Sequence record: OR067838.1
Direction: 5' to 3' (one strand)
Source: Escherichia phage KKP 3954
Length of the DNA stretch: 64,000 nucleotides
Shown here in pieces: positions 7,198 to 64,000 of the stretch (positions are counted from its first letter, which is position 1; every line of letters starts with the position of its first letter). The position numbers and the translations under genes are program-made. Below the pieces are notes generated by a model, which was given only the letters and a program-made list of their open reading frames with translations, did not search any database and was not told the origin of the DNA.

Positions 7198-7276
7198 TGG
7201 AGGCGGGAATTGGATTTGAACCAATGATCTCCAGCATATGAAACTGGCGAGGACGACCAGACTCCTCTATCCCGCT
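7198..7276 (-). tRNA. tRNA-Met (anticodon CAT)
   Basis: Manual cloverleaf: CCA encoded, acceptor GGCGGGA/TCCCGCT, T-arm ATTGG-ATTTGAA-CCAAT, anticodon loop rc TTCATAT; long D-loop. Confidence 0.6.
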
Positions 7277-7280
7277 ATCA

Positions 7281-7352
7281 TGTATCCCGTGCTGGATTCG
7301 AACCAGCGTCACAATAAATTGTGGATCTCTTATCCTGTAAGTCTAACGGGAA
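7281..7352 (-). tRNA. tRNA-like element, no canonical anticodon arm (possible pseudo-tRNA)
   Basis: Perfect T-arm GCTGG-ATTCGAA-CCAGC and 6/7 acceptor complementarity, but no 5-bp anticodon stem found by hand. Confidence 0.25.
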
Positions 7353-7354
7353 AC

Positions 7355-7428
7355 TGGTTGTTTCGACAAGAATCGAACTTGTGTCTCACGATTATCAGTC
7401 GTGGGTTCTACCATTGAACTACGAAACA
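7355..7428 (-). tRNA. tRNA-Ile (anticodon GAT)
   Basis: CCA encoded; acceptor TGTTTCG/CGAAACA; T-arm ACAAG-AATCGAA-CTTGT; anticodon stem CACGA/TCGTG, loop rc CTGATAA. Confidence 0.7.
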
Positions 7429-7434
7429 TTTAAT

Positions 7435-7511
7435 TGGTCGGAATTGCAGGATTCGAACCTGCGACCCTACGCTCCCAAAGCGTATGCTCTACCAAACTGA
7501 GCTAAATTCCG
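7435..7511 (-). tRNA. tRNA-Pro (anticodon TGG)
   Basis: CCA encoded; acceptor CGGAATT/AATTCCG; T-arm GCAGG-ATTCGAA-CCTGC; D-arm GCTC-TACCAAACT-GAGC; anticodon stem TACGC/GCGTA. Confidence 0.75.
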
Positions 7512-7516
7512 TTATA

Positions 7517-7592
7517 TGGCTGGTCTGTCTGGATTTGAACCAAACCTACGACAGTCAAAGTGTCGTGTGCTACCGGACTACACTACAAACCA
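7517..7592 (-). tRNA. tRNA-Gln (anticodon TTG)
   Basis: CCA encoded; T-loop ATTTGAA; anticodon stem CGACA/TGTCG, loop rc CTTTGAC; one mismatch each in T-stem and acceptor. Confidence 0.6.
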
Positions 7593-7690
7593 ATAAATCA
7601 TTTAATGAAGGGCAACCAGAAGAAGTGTGAGAGAAGGAGAAAACCATGAGTAAAAGAGAAAGTTTTCTGGCAACCCTTTATTAAATAATT

Positions 7691-7764
7691 TGGAGCGTTC
7701 TACGAGGATCGAACTCGTGCCGCCGACTTGGAAGGACGGAATGCTACCGCTACACCAAGAACGC
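7691..7764 (-). tRNA. tRNA-Gly (anticodon TCC)
   Basis: CCA encoded; acceptor GCGTTCT/AGAACGC; T-arm ACGAG-GATCGAA-CTCGT; anticodon loop rc CTTCCAA; one mismatch in anticodon stem. Confidence 0.55.
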
Positions 7765-7775
7765 CCTATATATTT

Positions 7776-7805
7776 ACTATACTACATTTTACTATTTGTT
7801 GTCAA
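7776..7805 (-). promoter_or_regulatory. sigma70-like promoter upstream of tRNA-Gly
   Basis: Minus strand TTGACA-N18-TATAGT, placing the start site a few nt before tRNA-Gly. Confidence 0.4.
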
Positions 7806-8077
7806 GACTTTTATTGATTGGGACAGTGACGAGTATCCCGTTGGGTGACTAGCCCTACGTTCGGTAAGCTAACTTAAAATAATACAAAACCAAAGTCAAA
7901 TATTATTCTTCGTTGCTGTCGATGGGAGAGCCGCTTCTCATTTTGCCCCATCCAACCCTACTCCGGTCAAGTTTCGGGTGACTCTTTTTGTGATCAACAC
8001 AATACTAAGAACACTGTCTTTCGAGCAGACCTTGTGCACAGGAACGACGATCAATCACAATGCTCTTAATGTTGTGT

Positions 8078-8152
8078 TGGTGCTCCCACACTGAATCGAA
8101 CAGAGATCCACGGATTACAAAACCGTTGTAATAGCCATTATACTATAGGAGC
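8078..8152 (-). tRNA. tRNA-Thr (anticodon TGT)
   Basis: CCA encoded; acceptor GCTCCCA/TAGGAGC; T-loop AATCGAA; anticodon loop rc TTTGTAA; single mismatches in T and anticodon stems. Confidence 0.6.
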
Positions 8153-8158
8153 AATGCT

Positions 8159-8235
8159 GGGACTCGGCAGGATTCGATACCTGCAATTCCAGAAGCCTAT
8201 TGGCGACTGGGGGTTTACCTTAACTCTACAAGTCC
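8159..8235 (-). tRNA. tRNA-like element, unresolved fold
   Basis: T-arm-like GCAGG-ATTCGATA-CCTGC (8-nt loop) and acceptor-like complementarity GGACTCG/CAAGTCC; no canonical anticodon arm found by hand. Confidence 0.25.
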
Positions 8236-8242
8236 ATAATTC

Positions 8243-8328
8243 TGGCGATGAGTATAGGATTCGAACCTATATTGTTCTTTCGAACACGGATTAACAGTCC
8301 GCCGCTTAAACCGTTCAGCCAACTCATC
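8243..8328 (-). tRNA. tRNA with anticodon GTT (Asn-type) and an atypical 15-nt variable region
   Basis: CCA encoded; perfect acceptor GATGAGT/ACTCATC; T-arm ATAGG-ATTCGAA-CCTAT; anticodon stem ACGGA/TCCGC, loop rc CTGTTAA; extra GTTC-TTTC-GAAC hairpin. Confidence 0.45.
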
Positions 8329-8334
8329 TTAATT

Positions 8335-8422
8335 TGGTGGTGAGTGATGGAGTCGAACCACCCGAATCGCAATGATAACAGATTTACAGTCTGCCCCGCT
8401 ACCCCTACGGAATTAACTCACC
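8335..8422 (-). tRNA. tRNA-Tyr (anticodon GTA)
   Basis: CCA encoded; acceptor GGTGAGT/ACTCACC; T-loop AGTCGAA; long variable arm (class II); anticodon loop rc CTGTAAA. Confidence 0.7.
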
Positions 8423-8553
8423 TAAATACTAATATTTAAATTCTTTTTAAAATAGCCAGTGTTCGCACCACTAACTATGAGTTATCGGTAAGATGGTGGG
8501 GGGCTATCTTCCGAAAGTTTACTCTATTAAAGTAAGCTACATTAAAAAGAACT

Positions 8554-8639
8554 TGGCGGTAGATGTAGGACTCGAACCTACACGCCGTTTCCGACTACAG
8601 TTTAGCAAACTGTCGTGGCTACCATTTCACCAATCTACC
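8554..8639 (-). tRNA. tRNA-Ser (anticodon GCT)
   Basis: CCA encoded; acceptor GGTAGAT/ATCTACC; T-arm GTAGG-ACTCGAA-CCTAC; anticodon stem ACAGT/ACTGT, loop rc TTGCTAA; long variable arm. Confidence 0.75.
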
Positions 8640-8644
8640 TAATC

Positions 8645-8735
8645 TGGCGGAAGGAGGGAGAGTCGAACTCCCAAGGCTCTTTCAAGCTCGGCGGTTTTCA
8701 AGACCGTTTTCGTCGCCACATCGATTTGCCCTTCC
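8645..8735 (-). tRNA. tRNA-Ser (anticodon TGA)
   Basis: CCA encoded; T-arm GGGAG-AGTCGAA-CTCCC; anticodon stem GCGGT/ACCGT (G-U), loop rc CTTGAAA; long variable arm. Confidence 0.7.
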
Positions 8736-8969
8736 ATACTTATAATCTAACATAAAATAATGATTGTTGTCAATACTTTTTTAAAACATTTTACCATGAA
8801 TGGTGACTCCACCAACCCCCGTTCTCCACGAACGGTGCTCTTCGAGCATTTATGTCTTCTAATATAACCGTGGCCTTTGTTTATAATGTCTGACATACTT
8901 GCCTCATTCTCTGCCACCATGATCAGTAGTGGGTTCAAATCACTTGAGCTAATTCATGTTAAAATGTTC

Positions 8970-9044
8970 TGGTGTCTTTACAAGGAATCGAACCTTGACT
9001 AAGAGTTTAGAAGACTCCTGTGCTATCCATTACACCATAAAGAC
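8970..9044 (-). tRNA. tRNA-Arg (anticodon TCT)
   Basis: CCA encoded; acceptor GTCTTTA/TAAAGAC; T-arm CAAGG-AATCGAA-CCTTG; anticodon loop rc CTTCTAA. Confidence 0.7.
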
Positions 9045-9046
9045 GT

Positions 9047-9121
9047 TGGTGGCCCTGGCTGGTTTCGATCCAGCTACCTATCGGTTATGAGCCGACAGCT
9101 CTCCCATTGAGCTACAGGGCC
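9047..9121 (-). tRNA. tRNA with anticodon CAT (second copy; initiator Met or lysidine-Ile)
   Basis: CCA encoded; acceptor GGCCCTG/CAGGGCC; T-arm GCTGG-TTTCGAT-CCAGC; D-arm GCTC-TCCCATT-GAGC; anticodon loop rc CTCATAA. Confidence 0.7.
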
Positions 9122-9368
9122 ATAAATGTGGTAACAGAGACGCTGACGATTGTAGAGAACCGCTACATTCTCTAAGACCAAGCCCAACTTTCAGCGTAAA
9201 AGTTCTTGAGCCGAGACTATTCCTTTTCCTCTTTGGTAGCTAACCTCTGAAGAAGTAGTCTCTAACACTATCCGCAGTGCAAGCCCCTCTTAACAAAAGT
9301 CAACGACCCTGTTACCACACTTGATGAACGTATCCTAACATATGAAGGATACGTTTGTCAATAGTTAT

Positions 9369-9617
9369 TTAAGCATATTCTGCTACTTCTTCACTATCTT
9401 TCTTTTCCAGAAGAGCAACAACCAAAGCTTCTGCGTTAAAAGTATTAATTTCAAGATCCATCTCTCGCATCAGAGCCAAGAAATCAATAACTTTAACATC
9501 TTTAGTGATTACAATAGAAGTTGTACCATTGTTTTCAGATGTGTATTTTTCTGGATGGAAAAGAAAAACTGCATTGCCGTTACCATCTTCAAACACGTGT
9601 TTTTCTAATAGAGACAT
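9369..9617 (-). CDS. hypothetical protein
   Basis: Track ORF 9369..9683; AGGAGG RBS supports start at MSLLEKHVFEDG (9617). Confidence 0.5.
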   Translation of the reverse strand: MSLLEKHVFEDGNGNAVFLFHPEKYTSENNGTTSIVITKDVKVIDFLALMREMDLEINTFNAEALVVALLEKKDSEEVAEYA

Positions 9618-9625
9618 TGTTCCTC

Positions 9626-9877
9626 CTAATCTGTTAGTTGTTCGTCCTCTACCAAGTTTGACACGAGAACGTCTGTTATACATTGATGCTGATAAACCCT
9701 TTCGGGACTATCATCAAAAGCCAAACCTGTGCAAATAGAACAGAGGTCTGATTCCTTGATGACTCCATTTTTATCACGTCTGGAGTGGTTTGTCAAATGC
9801 CTATTACAAGCACGGCACCTAAAATAAAAGCTATTTTGCATATATCCTTCGAACCCCAAATGGGGAGTGATCGGCAT
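9626..9877 (-). CDS. hypothetical Cys-rich (zinc-finger-like) protein
   Basis: 83 aa; CRACNRH ... CSIC cysteine pairs. Confidence 0.4.
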   Translation of the reverse strand: MPITPHLGFEGYMQNSFYFRCRACNRHLTNHSRRDKNGVIKESDLCSICTGLAFDDSPERVYQHQCITDVLVSNLVEDEQLTD

Positions 9878-9914
9878 CTCCTCACTTCTAGTTTAGCACG
9901 AAGGATATCTTAAG

Positions 9915-10100
9915 TCAACTAGGAATAATTTTATCCCTTTTGGTTTCATAACCAGTCCAATCTAAATCCTCCCAGCCTTCATCATCGTCTAACACATTGT
10001 CATCGTCATAAGATGCAATGTTATAAATAGAACGTGGATTACAAGACATACAATCTTTAATAGGCACATGATGCCATTTGCACGGATTATCACTAATCAT
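9915..10100 (-). CDS. hypothetical protein
   Basis: 61 aa ORF; GGAGG RBS upstream on minus strand. Confidence 0.45.
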   Translation of the reverse strand: MISDNPCKWHHVPIKDCMSCNPRSIYNIASYDDDNVLDDDEGWEDLDWTGYETKRDKIIPS

Positions 10101-10577
10101 TGCACACCTCCATTCTTGTTAAGATGTTTCATGTATTGTACTTCATACTAATCTATAGATCAAGTATTATTTATAATAATTTATTATTTTAATTGATAGA
10201 AGTTGATCTATACATACCAGTTCTGATACACTGTACCTGTTTGTTAGATCTAATAATTATTTATTATTAATATTTAATAATTATTAATCTAATACGAATG
10301 ACAATATTTGAGTATGAGAGTACTACATCAACAACCTAAAACCTTAACTCGCTGCGCTCGTTAATAGATTTCTAGGGTAGCATACTTCGAACACAAAAGT
10401 CAAGTGTTTTATTAAAATTATTTTCTGTGTGCAAAAACCTTGCTTAAACAGGTAGCAATAGTATAGCCTATAACATAAGCTTCATAAGAGGCTCGTAGAG
10501 CAAGTTTACTTACTAGGTAAGGTGATTTATCATCTTATATATAAAAAGTGCGTCAGAGACGCGTTTAGGAGGCTAGA
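10101..10577. promoter_or_regulatory. AT-rich divergent intergenic control region
   Basis: 477 bp non-coding between minus and plus gene blocks; 12-bp perfect palindrome GATCTATAGATC, AT-rich direct repeats, GCGTC-AGA-GACGC hairpin before first plus-strand RBS. Confidence 0.5.
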
Positions 10578-10901
10578 ATGAGATTTACAAGACAAGAGGT
10601 GGTTGTGCTGGACGAAGCAATGACAATGATCGTCTTTTACTATGAGGATATCTTCTGTGCAGCATATCATTTAAATGACATTCAGATTGAATGGCAGCAG
10701 ATAGCATTCCTGTTGGACAAGAGTAATCATTTAGATGGCTTTGAGTATTTGGAGTGGGATGGTGCAAAGGAAGTTAAAATTGTAGGGTTAAATCACGATC
10801 AGATTGTTGACATGCAATGTAAGTTGTGTCATTATCAGTTCTCAAATAAAGTTAAACTCGAAAGGCAACTGGAGGTAGTTAAAGATGATAGCACTAATTA
10901 G
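10578..10901 (+). CDS. hypothetical protein
   Basis: 107 aa; GGAGG RBS; first gene of plus block. Confidence 0.55.
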   Translation: MRFTRQEVVVLDEAMTMIVFYYEDIFCAAYHLNDIQIEWQQIAFLLDKSNHLDGFEYLEWDGAKEVKIVGLNHDQIVDMQCKLCHYQFSNKVKLERQLEVVKDDSTN

Positions 10902-10997
10902 TGAGCATCCAATCCTGGCAACAATTGTTCTGATTTTCGCCATTTGTGTGGTTCACGATGTTCTGGTAAGCTATTTTGACAACAAAGGAGGTAAGAA

Positions 10998-11192
10998 ATG
11001 AAAGACGTTATTCAAATGGTATTCCGTGTCACCCTGGATGATATTCATGTTGTTAAAGGCACCCAGAACTACACAGAAGCGAAAGAACATTTCCTGGAAT
11101 GGGTTGAGACGTTGAAGACACAAAACGTTTCCTACAACCGTGTGACGCTCACTGGCGACCATACCCCAATCATGGAGTACGTAAAGAAATGA
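10998..11192 (+). CDS. hypothetical protein
   Basis: 64 aa; AGGAGG RBS; co-oriented packing. Confidence 0.5.
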   Translation: MKDVIQMVFRVTLDDIHVVKGTQNYTEAKEHFLEWVETLKTQNVSYNRVTLTGDHTPIMEYVKK

Positions 11193-11428
11193 GCAAATAT
11201 CCAATTACAGGTGTAACCTATTCTTGTGTATCCAAAGGTGGCTTATATACGGTCGTGGAATTTCCAAAACCTGCCGGAATATCTAAAGTGTTTGATCCTG
11301 TTGTTATCTATGAAGATCTTAGAACAGGTCAACGTTATTGGAGATTTGTGAATGACTTTTTAGATCGTATGGAGGTAGTAAGTGGCGAAAACACCGAAGA
11401 AGTTATCAAAGCCAAAGAACGTTACTAA
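11189..11428 (+). CDS. hypothetical protein
   Basis: 79 aa; ATGA start/stop overlap with upstream gene. Confidence 0.5.
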   Translation: MSKYPITGVTYSCVSKGGLYTVVEFPKPAGISKVFDPVVIYEDLRTGQRYWRFVNDFLDRMEVVSGENTEEVIKAKERY

Positions 11429-11735
11429 GAAACCGAAAAACGAGGTTCTCAAAGTAGCCAAATCAGTTCCTAAGAAAGATAAATTTGATACGGAGGCATT
11501 CGTCTTTGACACACCAATCGAGAAGATTGAAGAAGCGTTGCAACGTCTTGAGGAGCAGGAGGCAGATCCAATGGCTGAACCACTCACGGCAGACCAAATT
11601 TATTGGTGGGGAATATGGACTTTGCAACTACCAGAAGCAAAAAGAAGAGGAATGACTTCAGTTCCTACTTGCGCAAAAGAAGCGGCTGTGTTAGGTTTGT
11701 ATGAGAAATCTAAAAAGAGGAGCAAAAAGAAATGA
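11382..11735 (+). CDS. hypothetical Lys-rich basic protein (possible nucleic-acid binding)
   Basis: 117 aa; GTG start after GGAGGT; N-terminal KKLSKPKNVTKKPKN and C-terminal KKRSKKK. Confidence 0.45.
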   Translation: MAKTPKKLSKPKNVTKKPKNEVLKVAKSVPKKDKFDTEAFVFDTPIEKIEEALQRLEEQEADPMAEPLTADQIYWWGIWTLQLPEAKRRGMTSVPTCAKEAAVLGLYEKSKKRSKKK

Positions 11736-12013
11736 TCAAGACTTTCCTGAAGTGTGTAAAAGCAACAGATAATGAGTGGTACTCTGGATTATTCACTGCT
11801 GGCAAGAAATACGAGATCCTCAACGGGACAGGCAAGAAGTTTTCTCTCGTTATAAACGATGAAGGCACGAAGCAAATGGTATTTGCTGAAAGTTCTGTTT
11901 ATGGTATTTTTGAAGTAGTGCAAGAAGGCTCTCCAATGATTCTGGAGTATCATGGCACTAATAAACCATATACTGCTATGGATGTTATCAACAATAAGAG
12001 GAATGCAAAATGA
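11732..12013 (+). CDS. hypothetical protein
   Basis: 93 aa; ATGA overlap with upstream stop. Confidence 0.5.
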   Translation: MIKTFLKCVKATDNEWYSGLFTAGKKYEILNGTGKKFSLVINDEGTKQMVFAESSVYGIFEVVQEGSPMILEYHGTNKPYTAMDVINNKRNAK

Positions 12014-38499: not shown

Positions 38500-38829
38500 A
38501 TGGAAATTACTACAGAACAAGCCCTTATCGACGAGGGTCGTAAAATCTTAGAAAAGCATTTAGGGGAGATTCATAAAACTCCTGGCTATTTGGGTTGGAG
38601 AATTGTTGAAGCTGTAGATTTCCTTCCTCGTAACAGTAAAAGCGTCGAAATGCGATCTCTTTTCTTATTAGTAAAGGTGGATGGGGATACACCTTTTAAA
38701 GATGCCGCAGAGCATATTGAAAAAGTTGAAGAGAAAGCTTATGCAGAATTTGCCGATCTTGTTTTAGAACAAAAGATTGAAGGAAAGGTGAATATTTTTA
38801 TTTTCTTAGATTTTGAGGAGGATAAGTGA
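38500..38829 (+). CDS. hypothetical protein
   Basis: 109 aa; GGAGGAAGG RBS. Confidence 0.55.
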   Translation: MEITTEQALIDEGRKILEKHLGEIHKTPGYLGWRIVEAVDFLPRNSKSVEMRSLFLLVKVDGDTPFKDAAEHIEKVEEKAYAEFADLVLEQKIEGKVNIFIFLDFEEDK

Positions 38830-39569
38830 TCATACATAGAGAAATTACTGTTAAAAGCGATCAAGATCTTTTTATAATTGGAGATCTACACGGTTGTTAT
38901 AATTTGTATGAAAAAGGAAAGGCAAAGTTAGGTATCCGAGATACAGATGTAGTTGTATCTTTAGGAGATCTTACTGACCGTGGAAAGCAAAACTTTCGTT
39001 GTGTTTTAGAATTTACTCGTAAACACAATCGCTACGCTATTCGTGGAAATCATGAAGACATGATGATTAAAGGTATGCTGGAAGGAGATCGTAGCTACTT
39101 CGAGTGTTGGTATCAAAATGGAGGATATACAGTCCTTGAAGAATGTGGTGAAGAAGGAGCTACAGCCTTAGCAATGATGACAGAAGATTTACCTGTTGTT
39201 CTCATTGTTAACTACAGAGGCATGAAACTTGCGTTTATTCATGGTGGGTATCCATCTTCTTTGGAATATCTCCCTGTAACAGATATTCCAGAATACACTT
39301 TGAAGATGACAAAAACACAGGAAAACCGTTTTGCTGAAGCACTTATGTGGGACAGAGATATGGTGGACTGTGCTAAAGAGGGAATGAAACTTCCTGTTGT
39401 GATGGGTGTGGACTATGTGTTTCATGGACACTCTTATGTAAAAACACCTATTATCAATGCGAATCGTGTTTATATGGATACTGGATCTGTGTTCAATAAT
39501 AACTTAACATTTGCTTATTTCGATATGGACGGTGGTCTTCAATTTTATTCAACTCTTGAGGAGGATTAA
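38826..39569 (+). CDS. Ser/Thr protein phosphatase (PPP family, lambda-phosphatase-like)
   Basis: 247 aa; GTG start; motifs GDLHG, GDLTDRG, RGNHE. Confidence 0.75.
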   Translation: MIIHREITVKSDQDLFIIGDLHGCYNLYEKGKAKLGIRDTDVVVSLGDLTDRGKQNFRCVLEFTRKHNRYAIRGNHEDMMIKGMLEGDRSYFECWYQNGGYTVLEECGEEGATALAMMTEDLPVVLIVNYRGMKLAFIHGGYPSSLEYLPVTDIPEYTLKMTKTQENRFAEALMWDRDMVDCAKEGMKLPVVMGVDYVFHGHSYVKTPIINANRVYMDTGSVFNNNLTFAYFDMDGGLQFYSTLEED

Positions 39570-49761: not shown

Positions 49762-50121
49762 TCTTCCTCCTGTTCGGTATTATTCACCTGTGAGACACAA
49801 TGTAACACAAGCTTTGTGAGTTTGTCAAGGATCTAATTACATTCTACAGAAGAAGATGGTTAATAACTATAGGAATAGTCTTACTATAGGTGCAATACTA
49901 GTTAAGAGTTAGATTGATAGGTAAGACTTATCTTAAACAGATAATTGATAGGTGAGTCAGCATTGACTTTTTCAAAAAAATATGGTACCCTAAACATATG
50001 TTTACGAGCGATAGCGAGTAGTAGATTTCTATATAATAATGTTTCATGTTACTCACGATAGTGAGGTATGAAACGTAAGTGAAGGTAGATAAACTATGAT
50101 CATCTATCTACCATCTATTAA
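49762..50121. promoter_or_regulatory. intergenic region rich in inverted and direct repeats
   Basis: 360 bp non-coding inside minus gene block; TTGATAGGT x2, ACTATAGG x2, GGTAGATA-N13-TATCTACC, GTTTCAT ... ATGAAAC palindrome. Confidence 0.4.
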
Positions 50122-50331
50122 TCAATATAGATCTAATGTTAGACTAACAGTTATCCAACAAACAATAGCAGTCCATATAACAAGTAATGATCTACAAACT
50201 ACATCCCATTCAAATACATTGTATGTTAACCATTCTCCCATCACAACAGAAGAACCCAACCAACATCCAACAACAACTATAATCCAATAAAAGAATCCTA
50301 CAGTAGAGTATACAGCAAAAGCTTTTAACAT
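50122..50331 (-). CDS. small membrane protein
   Basis: 69 aa, two hydrophobic segments; GGAGGA RBS. Confidence 0.45.
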   Translation of the reverse strand: MLKAFAVYSTVGFFYWIIVVVGCWLGSSVVMGEWLTYNVFEWDVVCRSLLVIWTAIVCWITVSLTLDLY

Positions 50332-62213: not shown

Positions 62214-62444
62214 TTAATAGACAATTTCATATTCGTGAGGAAAGAAAACATAATCTTCCCCTTCTCGTGCATCTATCTCGTCCCAAAACCATTCCTGCAC
62301 TTCCATCATCTTCGAGAATCGCACATGAGCAAGCCCACTGTATTCCACAGTAGCTTCCAACACAAGTGGAAATTTTGCATGTGCCAATCCTTTATAACCA
62401 CCATCATTCTCAATACGAATTTTCATGCGTTTCATGTTATGCAT
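62214..62444 (-). CDS. paralog family B member 2
   Basis: 76 aa; EWFWDEIDAREGEDYVFFPHE. Confidence 0.5.
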   Translation of the reverse strand: MHNMKRMKIRIENDGGYKGLAHAKFPLVLEATVEYSGLAHVRFSKMMEVQEWFWDEIDAREGEDYVFFPHEYEIVY

Positions 62445-62646
62445 CCTTCAGACCCTTAATAAAGTAACGACCAACCAGATTCCCTCGGAAGTATTCGTTA
62501 ATGAAATCGATAACACACGTTTCACTGCCTGTCACAACGGACGGCTTAAAGTTTTGGAATTCTACAGCTACACGGCTGGCTTTAGCCAGTGCTTGCACAC
62601 GTGTAGGATCAGTCAAGAACATTGTGACAGTTTTCAAATTCTTCAT
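62437..62646 (-). CDS. hypothetical protein
   Basis: 69 aa. Confidence 0.45.
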   Translation of the reverse strand: MKNLKTVTMFLTDPTRVQALAKASRVAVEFQNFKPSVVTGSETCVIDFINEYFRGNLVGRYFIKGLKDA

Positions 62647-62695
62647 TTCATCTCCTCATTGGCTATCTGTTATGTCATCCATTATACAAACATCT

Positions 62696-63079
62696 TTATT
62701 CAATGCAAGCATTATTTACATCTTCAATCCGATCTTTCACCCACTGAAGACGTAACGTGTTGGTATGACACGCCAAGTTTATACACTCTGAAAGGTAATC
62801 CATGCAATCCACATTGAACGGAAGATTGTAGTCCAGCCCTGCACATGTAAATTGTTTCCTCATTTCATATTTCAAACGGTCCAACAAATGATCACGCCAT
62901 TTTCTATCTTCTTCTCTAGGTGTCTCACCAACAAAATCATCTACATAATCTACCAGACAACCACATAAGCCACTCGTTGTGCGATTCATTGCAGGATAGT
63001 TGGCAATCCATGCTTTATAGAAGCGAAGCAATGTTGCACTGCTCAACGGAATACTATTTGTCATCTTTCTCTCCTTCAT
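62696..63079 (-). CDS. paralog family A member 5
   Basis: 127 aa; FYKAWIANY, GLCGCL, NLPFNVD, RLQWVKDRI. Confidence 0.55.
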   Translation of the reverse strand: MKERKMTNSIPLSSATLLRFYKAWIANYPAMNRTTSGLCGCLVDYVDDFVGETPREEDRKWRDHLLDRLKYEMRKQFTCAGLDYNLPFNVDCMDYLSECINLACHTNTLRLQWVKDRIEDVNNACIE

Positions 63080-63398
63080 AATCTTGAATTCTATCTAGCA
63101 CCCATTGTATACGATGTTTGTTTTTATGGCAAATATGTTTTTTATGTTCAAAGGTGTATTCCTCATAACCACCTTCATTAAACGGGAAATTGTAATCCAA
63201 TCCTGCACCAATAAACTGTGATTTCATCTCCTGTTGTAGACGAGGTAACAGTTCATCAGGGTATGTTCCCTCTACATACTTAATCAAACATATGCACAAA
63301 CCACTCGTTGTGTGACCTTCTACCTCACCAGCAAGCCAAGCTTTGTAAAACTTCATTAGACGTAAACTACTTAACGGAACATTTTTACTCTCTTGCAT
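63054..63398 (-). CDS. paralog family A member 6
   Basis: 114 aa; FYKAWLAGE, GLCICL, NFPFNEG, RIQWVLDRI; overlaps member 5 by 26 nt. Confidence 0.55.
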   Translation of the reverse strand: MQESKNVPLSSLRLMKFYKAWLAGEVEGHTTSGLCICLIKYVEGTYPDELLPRLQQEMKSQFIGAGLDYNFPFNEGGYEEYTFEHKKHICHKNKHRIQWVLDRIQDYEGEKDDK

Positions 63399-64000
63399 GA
63401 TAATCTCCTCTCATCGTTAGCTATCTTTCATGGCAATCATCAATCACCAACATCATACGATCAATCTTAGGGAATTACAATCGAATTATCATAGGGGATT
63501 CCTATCAATTATCCCATATATACCGATTATTTTTGACACCCCACTCTTGTATAAAAAGTAACCCAAAATATCTACGGGAAGAGATTATTTCGACACACCC
63601 TGTTTCATGGCAAGCATGGCAAGAATATCTAATAGAATCAATATCATATGGCAAAAATCATGGCGCATACGTAAGAAGTGCTTAACGCGAATTTTCGGGC
63701 CGTCAGGTCCACGCAGCGACAATTCCCAAATATCATGAGAATGAGAATAATTATCATTCGTATTCAATGACTTATGCAAGGCTCATGCCAACATAGCGAC
63801 AAGGTGGCCCACCTGATTATAAATCACACAAACACTTATTTATCAATGGCTTGGCAACTTCATCATATGACGGAACAATGTCAACTGATCCCGCCCATGA
63901 CAAGCAGACTATTATTTATATGAGAATGATTATTATTTAAACGTTTATTAGCATATAAACTAAAATAAATCAAGAATTTTCTGATTTTATTTACGTTTAA
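63399..64000. repeat. non-coding region with CATGGCAA-type repeats
   Basis: About 600 bp without convincing ORF; TCATGGCAATC, tandem CATGGCAAG-CATGGCAAG, TCATGGCGC, CCCATGACAAGC; AT-rich tail to window end. Confidence 0.4.

Follow-up and report, generated by a model that had tools for sequence, protein, structure and literature searches.

A non-coding gap between the leftward and rightward gene blocks of a phAPEC8-like phage as a probable two-way promoter hub with a conserved mini-hairpin module

We use comparative sequence analysis to study a 64,000-nucleotide stretch of Escherichia phage KKP 3954 (record OR067838.1; this whole stretch is called the window below), and in particular the 477-bp gap at 10101-10577 that splits a leftward block of late and transfer RNA (tRNA) genes from a rightward block of early genes, as an earlier note on this DNA had described. 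The window comes from a phAPEC8-like myovirus (Phapecoctavirus, Stephanstirmvirinae), and its 9000-12000 region is 97-98% identical to ESCO25, SKA64 and ~60 other records. No open reading frame (ORF) of 31 amino acids (aa) or longer lies inside the gap, for which reason we rejected a hidden gene, and no Rfam family matches there. The related records that we examined have no gene or regulatory signal annotated at the gap; some records from the Olsen collection mark an unexplained 55-nt 'repeat_region'. From the order and conservation of its elements, we think it likely that the gap is a compound, divergent hub of four promoters, at which the host sigma-70 RNA polymerase would start transcription in both directions. 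One of these promoters is coupled to a mini-hairpin box, and the resulting module, which recurs throughout the subfamily and is unannotated in the relatives examined, is what the gap adds to an ordinary hub.

Promoter-like sites and their conservation

We scored both strands of the 64 kb with a sigma-70 weight matrix (about 640,000 candidate placements) and found that three sites in the gap fall within the top 50 of the window, at ranks 32, 39 and 48. With a fourth, weaker site, the predicted promoters are:

10135-10163, minus strand: P_L1, with TTGATC (10163..10158), a 17-nt spacer and TACAAT (10140..10135); score 11.9, rank 32
10203-10232, plus strand: P_R1, extended -10 type, with TTGATC, an 18-nt spacer ending TGa and TACACT; score 11.2, rank 48
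10374-10403, minus strand: P_box, extended -10 type, with TTGACT, an 18-nt spacer ending TGc and TACCCT; score 11.6, rank 39
10505-10533, plus strand: P_R2, weaker, with TTTACT, a 17-nt spacer and TATCAT; score 8.7

P_L1 and P_R1 stand back to back with their -35 hexamers 39 bp apart, and the pair lies within a 30-nt imperfect inverted repeat. P_box faces P_R1; its start is predicted at ~10367, and the predicted starts of the two facing promoters are ~128 nt apart in the window. The elements and their statistical rank can be read directly from the genome, and it is promoter activity and start sites that we infer from them.

The argument for the hub comes mainly from other genera. We located the homologous gaps by way of the 107-aa protein encoded at their edge, of which 132 phage records have a homologue, and compared six taxa at a threshold score of 9: the window, phAPEC8, phiWec188, phi92 (Justusliebigvirus), Klebsiella phage phi1_175008 and Citrobacter phage Tr1. 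Sites equivalent to P_L1, P_R1 and P_box occur at syntenic offsets in all six (-10 elements at ~+31-40, +131-151 and +243-275 from the left gene), within surrounding sequence that is barely alignable. Alignments of the relatives have the hexamers kept while the spacers diverge: the phiWec P_R1 retains its -35 and TG-TAnnnT around a different spacer, and the TGnTACCCTA of P_box is invariant in 6/6 taxa. P_R1 and P_box are convergent in every lineage, with predicted starts 60-130 nt apart depending on the genus, and an equivalent of P_R2 scoring at least 9 is found solely in the Klebsiella phage (TTGACA-17-TATCAT) and Citrobacter Tr1 (TTGACT-17-TACCAT). This positional conservation is a direct observation, and the six-taxon synteny is the main support for the proposed hub. 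The earlier note had suggested a bidirectional promoter region, and the comparison, with three top-50 sites syntenic in six taxa, argues for it.

If this arrangement works as predicted, P_L1 would fire leftward and P_R1 rightward, back to back around a pure-AT tract that probably serves both as an UP-like, easily bent or melted spacer, and P_box (leftward) and P_R2 (rightward) would form a second back-to-back pair. Rightward transcription would feed the early block, while leftward transcription would feed the small ORFs, the tRNA cluster and then the lysis and head genes. Because P_R1 and P_box face each other, their transcripts would be antisense to each other where they overlap, and mutual interference could result. 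Transcripts from P_R2 would begin with a small hairpin just before the ribosome-binding site (RBS) of the first early gene. This hairpin, GCGTC-AGA-GACGC, had been pointed out in the earlier note and stands at 10550-10562 (plus strand), 4 nt before AGGAGG; it folds better than 200 of 200 shuffles (z = -2.4) and would occupy ~+10 to +22 of the predicted P_R2 transcript. It carries a G-U change in phiWec188, while phi92 and Citrobacter Tr1 have, as read by eye, hairpins of other sequence at this position. Terminator prediction raised the same hairpin as a minus-strand terminator, a candidate that we rejected on the grounds that its T-run is not kept in phi92 or Citrobacter Tr1.

Several points weigh against a hub of this kind. 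A separate consensus scan of 9-12 kb gave no excess of promoter-like sites (11 vs 9.1 expected), and P_R2 is weak both in the window (8.7) and in phi92. As a -10 hexamer TACCCT is poor, and that it never varies suggests that something besides sigma-70 constrains it. The record of ASO2A has no promoter among the features listed for the gap, though its paper counts nine for that genome, and the EP57 record is without the P_L1 -10 region. We found no published transcription start mapping for the subfamily, and all of the evidence is computational.

The genes and signals at the two edges of the gap are:

9915-10100, minus strand: first leftward gene, 61 aa, phrog_26411, hypothetical in relatives; it heads the block of small ORFs, tRNAs, lysis and head-packaging genes
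10567-10572, plus strand: RBS AGGAGG
10578-10901, plus strand: first rightward early gene, 107 aa, phrog_14390

The leftward block holds small ORFs, at least 10 tRNAs (7198-9121), an Rz-like spanin, the large terminase, the portal and a protease-like protein; the rightward block holds small ORFs, a metallophosphatase, an RNA ligase and a DNA ligase. Rfam adds two tRNA-like genes that ARAGORN missed, at 8338-8422 and 8649-8735 (both minus strand), and these match the positions of the tRNA-Tyr and tRNA-Ser(TGA) annotated in ASO2A. Between P_box and P_R2, the stretch 10440-10500 (with its counterparts at loci L008 1659-1871 and L014 ~1300-1440) seems to be an insertion hot spot. The phiWec phages have an annotated 70-aa gene there and the Klebsiella phage a ~46-aa gene, the latter from sequence read by eye; the window seemingly has just an RBS-like remnant, AAGAGG, without a start codon. 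The complete genome of the relative 536P1 has a second divergent switch, ~115 bp long (80222-80338 in window-rotated coordinates), which reuses AATACTTGATCT as its leftward -35 context and has TTGACA, a 17-nt spacer and TAAGAT rightward.

The palindrome, the GATC sites and the AT-rich tract

The earlier note had drawn attention to a perfect 12-bp palindrome containing GATC, GATCTATAGATC. This sequence is absent from the window: positions 10150-10161 read AATCTATAGATC, which has one mismatch. The elements present in this part of the gap are the following, none of them assigned to a strand:

10151-10160: perfect 10-bp palindrome ATCTATAGAT, overlapping the P_L1 -35 hexamer and spacer
10164-10202: 39-bp AT tract between the back-to-back -35 hexamers, holding a 30-nt AT-only run; position kept in all genera examined
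10242-10288: conserved GTTAGATCT block at the predicted P_R1 transcript start, followed by a 38-nt AT-only run

Perfect palindromes of at least 10 bp are not enriched across the window (64 observed vs 73 +/- 8 simulated). In the sister phages ESCO13, nepoznato and anhysbys the site is a perfect 14-mer, TGATCTATAGATCA; phAPEC8 has TGATTTATAGATCA and phiWec AGATCTAAAAGTCA at the same place, and no palindrome is found at the syntenic site in other genera. Across these variants the TTGATC -35 arm alone is invariant and the other arm changes (an A replaces G in the window, a T replaces C in phAPEC8), so that selection appears to act on the hexamer and not on the symmetry. The GATC sites were also part of the earlier description. 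They are indeed present, at 10158, 10205 and 10247, but as a cluster the three rank merely 7th in the window, and GATC is not depleted in the window (observed/expected 0.94). The tightest GATC cluster of the window, 5 sites in 128 bp at 38755-38900, is denser than that of the gap.

One could still read the palindrome as an operator, or the GATC sites as a Dam-methylation switch, acting over the divergent promoters. The palindrome does overlap the P_L1 -35 hexamer, both of the back-to-back -35 hexamers are TTGATC, the three sister phages share the perfect 14-mer, and every genus examined retains AGATC downstream of P_R1. Against this, the symmetry is variable and each variant breaks only the arm outside the -35, other genera have TTGACT or TTGACC without GATC, the P_R1 of phAPEC8 has TTGATA, and palindromes and GATC occur at chance frequency. 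We therefore consider such a switch improbable, and the operator suggested by the earlier note finds no support. The palindrome, like two of the three GATC sites, belongs to the TTGATC -35 hexamers and is no independent element, and the earlier emphasis on palindrome and GATC was in part a misreading.

The AT-richness of the gap is a different matter. AT-only runs with direct repeats had been noted before, and one of the repeats, TAATAATTATTTATTATT, is found at 10251-10268. Among the AT-only runs of the 64 kb, those at 10251-10288 (38 nt) and 10165-10194 (30 nt) rank first and third in length, and the 150 bp at 10145-10294 have a GC content of 17.3%, where the next lowest 150-bp stretch of the window has 26%; the homologous stretch has the lowest GC content of the full 536P1 genome. 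The tract at 10164-10202 is a candidate for a shared UP element or an easily melted spacer. The second run, 10251-10288, is restricted to the phAPEC8 clade.

A further four-letter site has an uneven distribution. GTAC is the most depleted 4-bp palindrome window-wide (36 observed vs 171 expected, 0.21), and the gap has it at 10138, 10233 and 10320. Most Phapecoctavirus relatives have 8-10 GTAC, mainly as AGTAC, within ~200 bp of the gap, and nowhere else in their genomes is GTAC clustered so densely; in this phage seven of these sites are gone, mainly via single-base changes that destroy the site, and these losses make up most of the divergence of its gap from those of its relatives.

A mini-hairpin module at the predicted leftward promoter P_box

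Downstream of P_box, on the same strand, lies a short, mirror-like box, ACGAGCGCAGCGAGT (10361..10347), for which the predicted fold is an outer stem, a C-G pair, tandem G.A/A.G, a G-C and a C-G pair and a GNA/GNRA loop. The module as a whole consists of TTGACT, 17-18 nt, TGnTACCCTA, 10-11 nt and CGAGCG(N1-2)AGCGAG. The two sites in the window are:

10344-10364, minus strand: mini-hairpin box TTAA-CGAGC-GCA-GCGAG-TTAA, at ~+4 to +24 of the predicted P_box transcript, on the non-template strand
49963-50019, plus strand: paralogous copy 2 of the module, with TTGACT, a 17-nt spacer ending TGg, TACCCTA, 11 nt and ACGAGCGATAGCGAGT

The chance expectation of the box pattern in the window is 0.00. 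The complete 536P1 genome has exactly three copies of the module, at 10.5 kb (minus strand), 49.2 kb (plus strand) and 81.7 kb (plus strand), and large Stephanstirmvirinae-like contigs from IMG/VR have three each. The paralogy of these copies is observed directly: the -35, TGnTACCCTA and the box are conserved and the spacers differ. Neither the place nor the orientation of copy 1 differs in phi92, the Klebsiella phage, Citrobacter Tr1 and phiWec, and copy 3 lies ~115 nt upstream of an RBS and gene. Twelve core positions of the box are invariant in 15/15 unique instances from the subfamily, although part of these come from an exact-pattern scan and are invariant by construction, and the independent evidence lies in the synteny copies, for which up to 2 mismatches were allowed. 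Only the middle base or bases of the loop change (GAA, GCA, GGA, GTA, GATA, GAAA and GGGA are seen). In the outer stem, pair 1 forms in 12/15 instances, with A-T and C-G as alternatives, and pair 3 in 15/15, including four G-T wobbles.

What could such a box do? It may be a 5'-terminal RNA hairpin, with tandem G.A pairs and a GNA/GNRA loop, on three transcripts, where it would protect from 5'-end-dependent decay or be bound by a phage or host protein in antitermination or translational control, and copy 2 would head a small RNA. We hold this as a tentative reading. In its favour, the hairpin invariably lies on the RNA-like strand and follows the -10 by 10-17 nt; pairing in the flanks is kept up by A-T to C-G substitutions and by G-T wobbles; within the box the loop base changes and the 12 core positions do not; and the predicted transcript of copy 2 folds well. 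The stability of the box itself is unremarkable: nearest-neighbour folding gives the hairpin but with z ~0 vs shuffles, as RNA or as DNA, and we rejected thermodynamic support for it on this account. No Rfam family matches at the gap, at copy 2 or at eight other motif-bearing loci. The Vibrio phage GR28A and locus L047 have no obvious promoter before the box, and a lambda-like boxA on the opposite strand, CGCUCGUUAA, is not kept in phi92 (CGCUCGGCG). A lambda-type nut site (boxA CGCUCUUA plus boxB) was rejected likewise, the plus-strand sequence being present only in the phAPEC8 and phiWec clades.

The predicted transcript of copy 2 (49998-50125, plus strand) is ~115 nt long and structured (z = -2.8), and ends at a hairpin shared with a 69-aa minus-strand gene at 50122-50331; it is a candidate small or antisense RNA.

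A scan of viral contigs for the module gave 48 loci, of which only three sets look meaningful: Stephanstirmvirinae, Vibrio phage GR28A and an environmental phage group with an inverted pair upstream of its terminase gene. We rejected a wide spread of the module among unrelated viruses, as several of the singletons fall within long ORFs, where they probably match by chance, and one contig (L045) is eukaryotic-virus-like. GR28A (Ackermannviridae; locus L067, 1050-1225) is unrelated to the phage studied here, and has AATTAACGAGCGCAGCGAGTTAATT beside a ~110-bp, almost pure-AT block in a divergent intergenic region; 22 bases of this sequence are identical to window 10344-10365, and its stem is extended to AATTAA-box-TTAATT. 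A literature search with the 12-mer returned matches in papers without bearing on phages. Overall, the module would act close to the promoter as a control element, at the RNA or the DNA level; that it signals the initiation of replication is less likely.

Replication signals, genome ends and known systems

The earlier note had also offered a replication origin, to be sought by cumulative GC skew. Rotated to window coordinates, 536P1 has four strand blocks. Its cumulative skew falls to a minimum at each of the two divergent switches (10.6 and 80.4 kb) and peaks at each convergent one; once the trend is removed, the lowest point of the genome is at 80.4 kb and not at the gap. The block means (+0.165, -0.138, +0.151 and -0.075) do not have the reinforcement expected for forks leaving the gap both ways. 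GC skew follows transcription and is no guide to an origin, as the authors of the rV5 study also concluded for their phage (PMC3606486). Within the gap there is no DnaA-box cluster, the one match (10428-10436, minus strand) not being conserved; there are no iterons, the direct repeats being low-complexity AT; there is no IHF core, and the oriC 13-mers have weak look-alikes only. A classic origin is thus unsupported, with no DnaA cluster, no iterons and a skew minimum that is not unique, while the AT-rich element itself is present.

An origin composed of promoter, mini-hairpin and AT tract is possible, and would be of a different type. Transcription from P_box would open the DNA, the non-template strand would fold into the CGAGC-GNA-GCGAG hairpin, this hairpin would serve as a single-strand initiation signal for the host PriA/primase or for a phage primase-helicase, and the AT tract 60-220 bp downstream would unwind, much as in ColE1 (RNA II promoter, R-loop, ssiA) or T4 oriF/oriG. 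Such an origin would be compatible with the promoter hub. By analogy with the single-strand initiation hairpins of ColE1 and phiX174, TGnTACCCTA plus CGAGC-GNA-GCGAG, at three per genome and across all of Stephanstirmvirinae, would be a transcription-triggered signal for DNA replication initiation, which we judge to be unlikely.

The genome's most AT-rich 150 bp lie just downstream of copy 1, and the order of promoter, hairpin and unwinding element fits an R-loop or ColE1-type origin in which protein recognition and the R-loop are themselves predictions. The sequence is part of pUC/pBR322-type vectors, and we confirmed an identical 13-mer, CGAGCGCAGCGAG, downstream of the pMB1 origin; p15A has CGAGCGTAGCGAG, with the loop base alone different. 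The F-G spacer of phiX174 has CAAGCGAAGCGCG, which matches the box at 11/13 positions. We take this spacer to be the PriA assembly site of phiX174, and we presume the PriA site of pBR322 to include the box; both placements are presumptions, which counts against the argument built on them. The box further fits the rule of mini-hairpin DNA, GCG(N)AGC / GCG(NN)AGC, which a 2026 review by Hirao describes as frequent at phage and plasmid sites of replication or transcription initiation, with the complementary-strand origins of G4, St-1 and alpha3, the ssiA of RSF1010 and the early promoters of N4 as examples (PMC13037366). In replication of the ColE1 type, ssiA, a site at which PriA assembles, becomes exposed downstream of the origin (PMC3167613), and PriA acts at R-loops (PMC5778457). 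On the other side, besides the z ~0 of the box and the missing DnaA-box cluster and iterons, the block to the left of the gap (block D) has the weakest skew (-0.075) where an enhanced one was expected, copies 2 and 3 are without an extreme AT tract, and relatives such as rV5 encode their own primase-helicase (PMC3606486).

We also asked whether the gap might hold the physical ends of the genome, as a terminal repeat or pac site. In favour, the terminase gene is ~4.4 kb away, the gap is long, AT-rich and free of coding sequence, and the nieznany GenBank record begins just left of it. Record starts vary among the relatives, however, and the only terminus determination that we found, a 342-bp direct terminal repeat in Justusliebigvirus BME3 (PMC12210895), maps to the equivalent of window 62.4-63.8 kb, ~53 kb from the gap; the BME3 terminal region has no match to the gap locus of phi92. 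We regard genome ends in the gap as very improbable. The physical ends of this phage may lie at or just past the right edge of the window, as the BME3 terminal region aligns to ~62400-64000; the last hundred bases, 63901-64000, are 19% GC.

The two-way promoter hub, then, is the reading that we favour. Phapecoctavirus and Justusliebigvirus are widely isolated and used as therapy candidates, and in the literature we came across no promoter, origin or regulatory RNA of theirs that had been mapped by experiment. The present analysis gives a testable map of what would be their main early/late switch, with four predicted promoters, two hairpins, one facing pair and a layout kept across genera. If the gap is a promoter hub only, the finding is an ordinary one, whose main effect is to correct the reading of the palindrome and GATC. 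The module is a handle for finding replication origins or a new promoter-proximal control element, and the 13-nt identity with ColE1-type plasmids ties it to classic, poorly catalogued DNA hairpin signals. If it did act as an initiation signal, a lytic myovirus would have three promoter-coupled origins, a type undescribed for large phages, and the copy in the gap would fire into the most AT-rich tract.

It is useful to compare the gap with systems that are better known. The temperate coliphages 186 (pR/pL) and P2 (Pe/Pc) have switches built from face-to-face promoters. P_R1 and P_box likewise form a convergent pair, with predicted transcripts overlapping by ~60-130 nt and an arrangement kept across genera; unlike those switches, the gap has no repressor genes beside it and belongs to a lytic phage, and interference between its promoters is a prediction. 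T4 oriF/oriG and the T7 primary origin have a promoter followed by an AT-rich unwinding element, and P_box similarly points into the most AT-rich tract of the genome, but there is no sequence relationship and two more predicted promoters lie inside the tract here.

The box itself resembles mini-hairpin DNA, GCGNAGC/GCGNNAGC (PMC13037366), in that the cores GCG-C-AGC of copy 1 and GCG-AT-AGC of copy 2 fit the rule, variation is confined to the middle loop base or bases, and the box stands at a transcription start region. It differs in lying within a longer invariant CGAG...CGAG frame, coupled to a sigma-70-type promoter, in a double-stranded-DNA myovirus. In ColE1, pMB1 and p15A the box would be on the displaced strand, judging from the direction of pMB1 replication; the plasmid and phiX174 sites are without the outer stem and the upstream TACCCT promoter, and the similarity spans 11-13 nt only.

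A likeness in layout is offered by the region between genes 10 and 11 of coliphage rV5 (Kropinski et al. 2013, PMC3606486). That phage is of a different subfamily, no sequence similarity to its gap was found, the TACCCT-plus-box module is not described for it, and its promoters, too, are in silico predictions. Nevertheless, rV5 is also a large myovirus with four transcription blocks; its GC-skew changes coincide with changes in the orientation of transcription; and bidirectional promoters, sigma-70-like and often of the extended -10 type, were predicted at one of its two equivalent strand switches, much as we predict them here for the gap.

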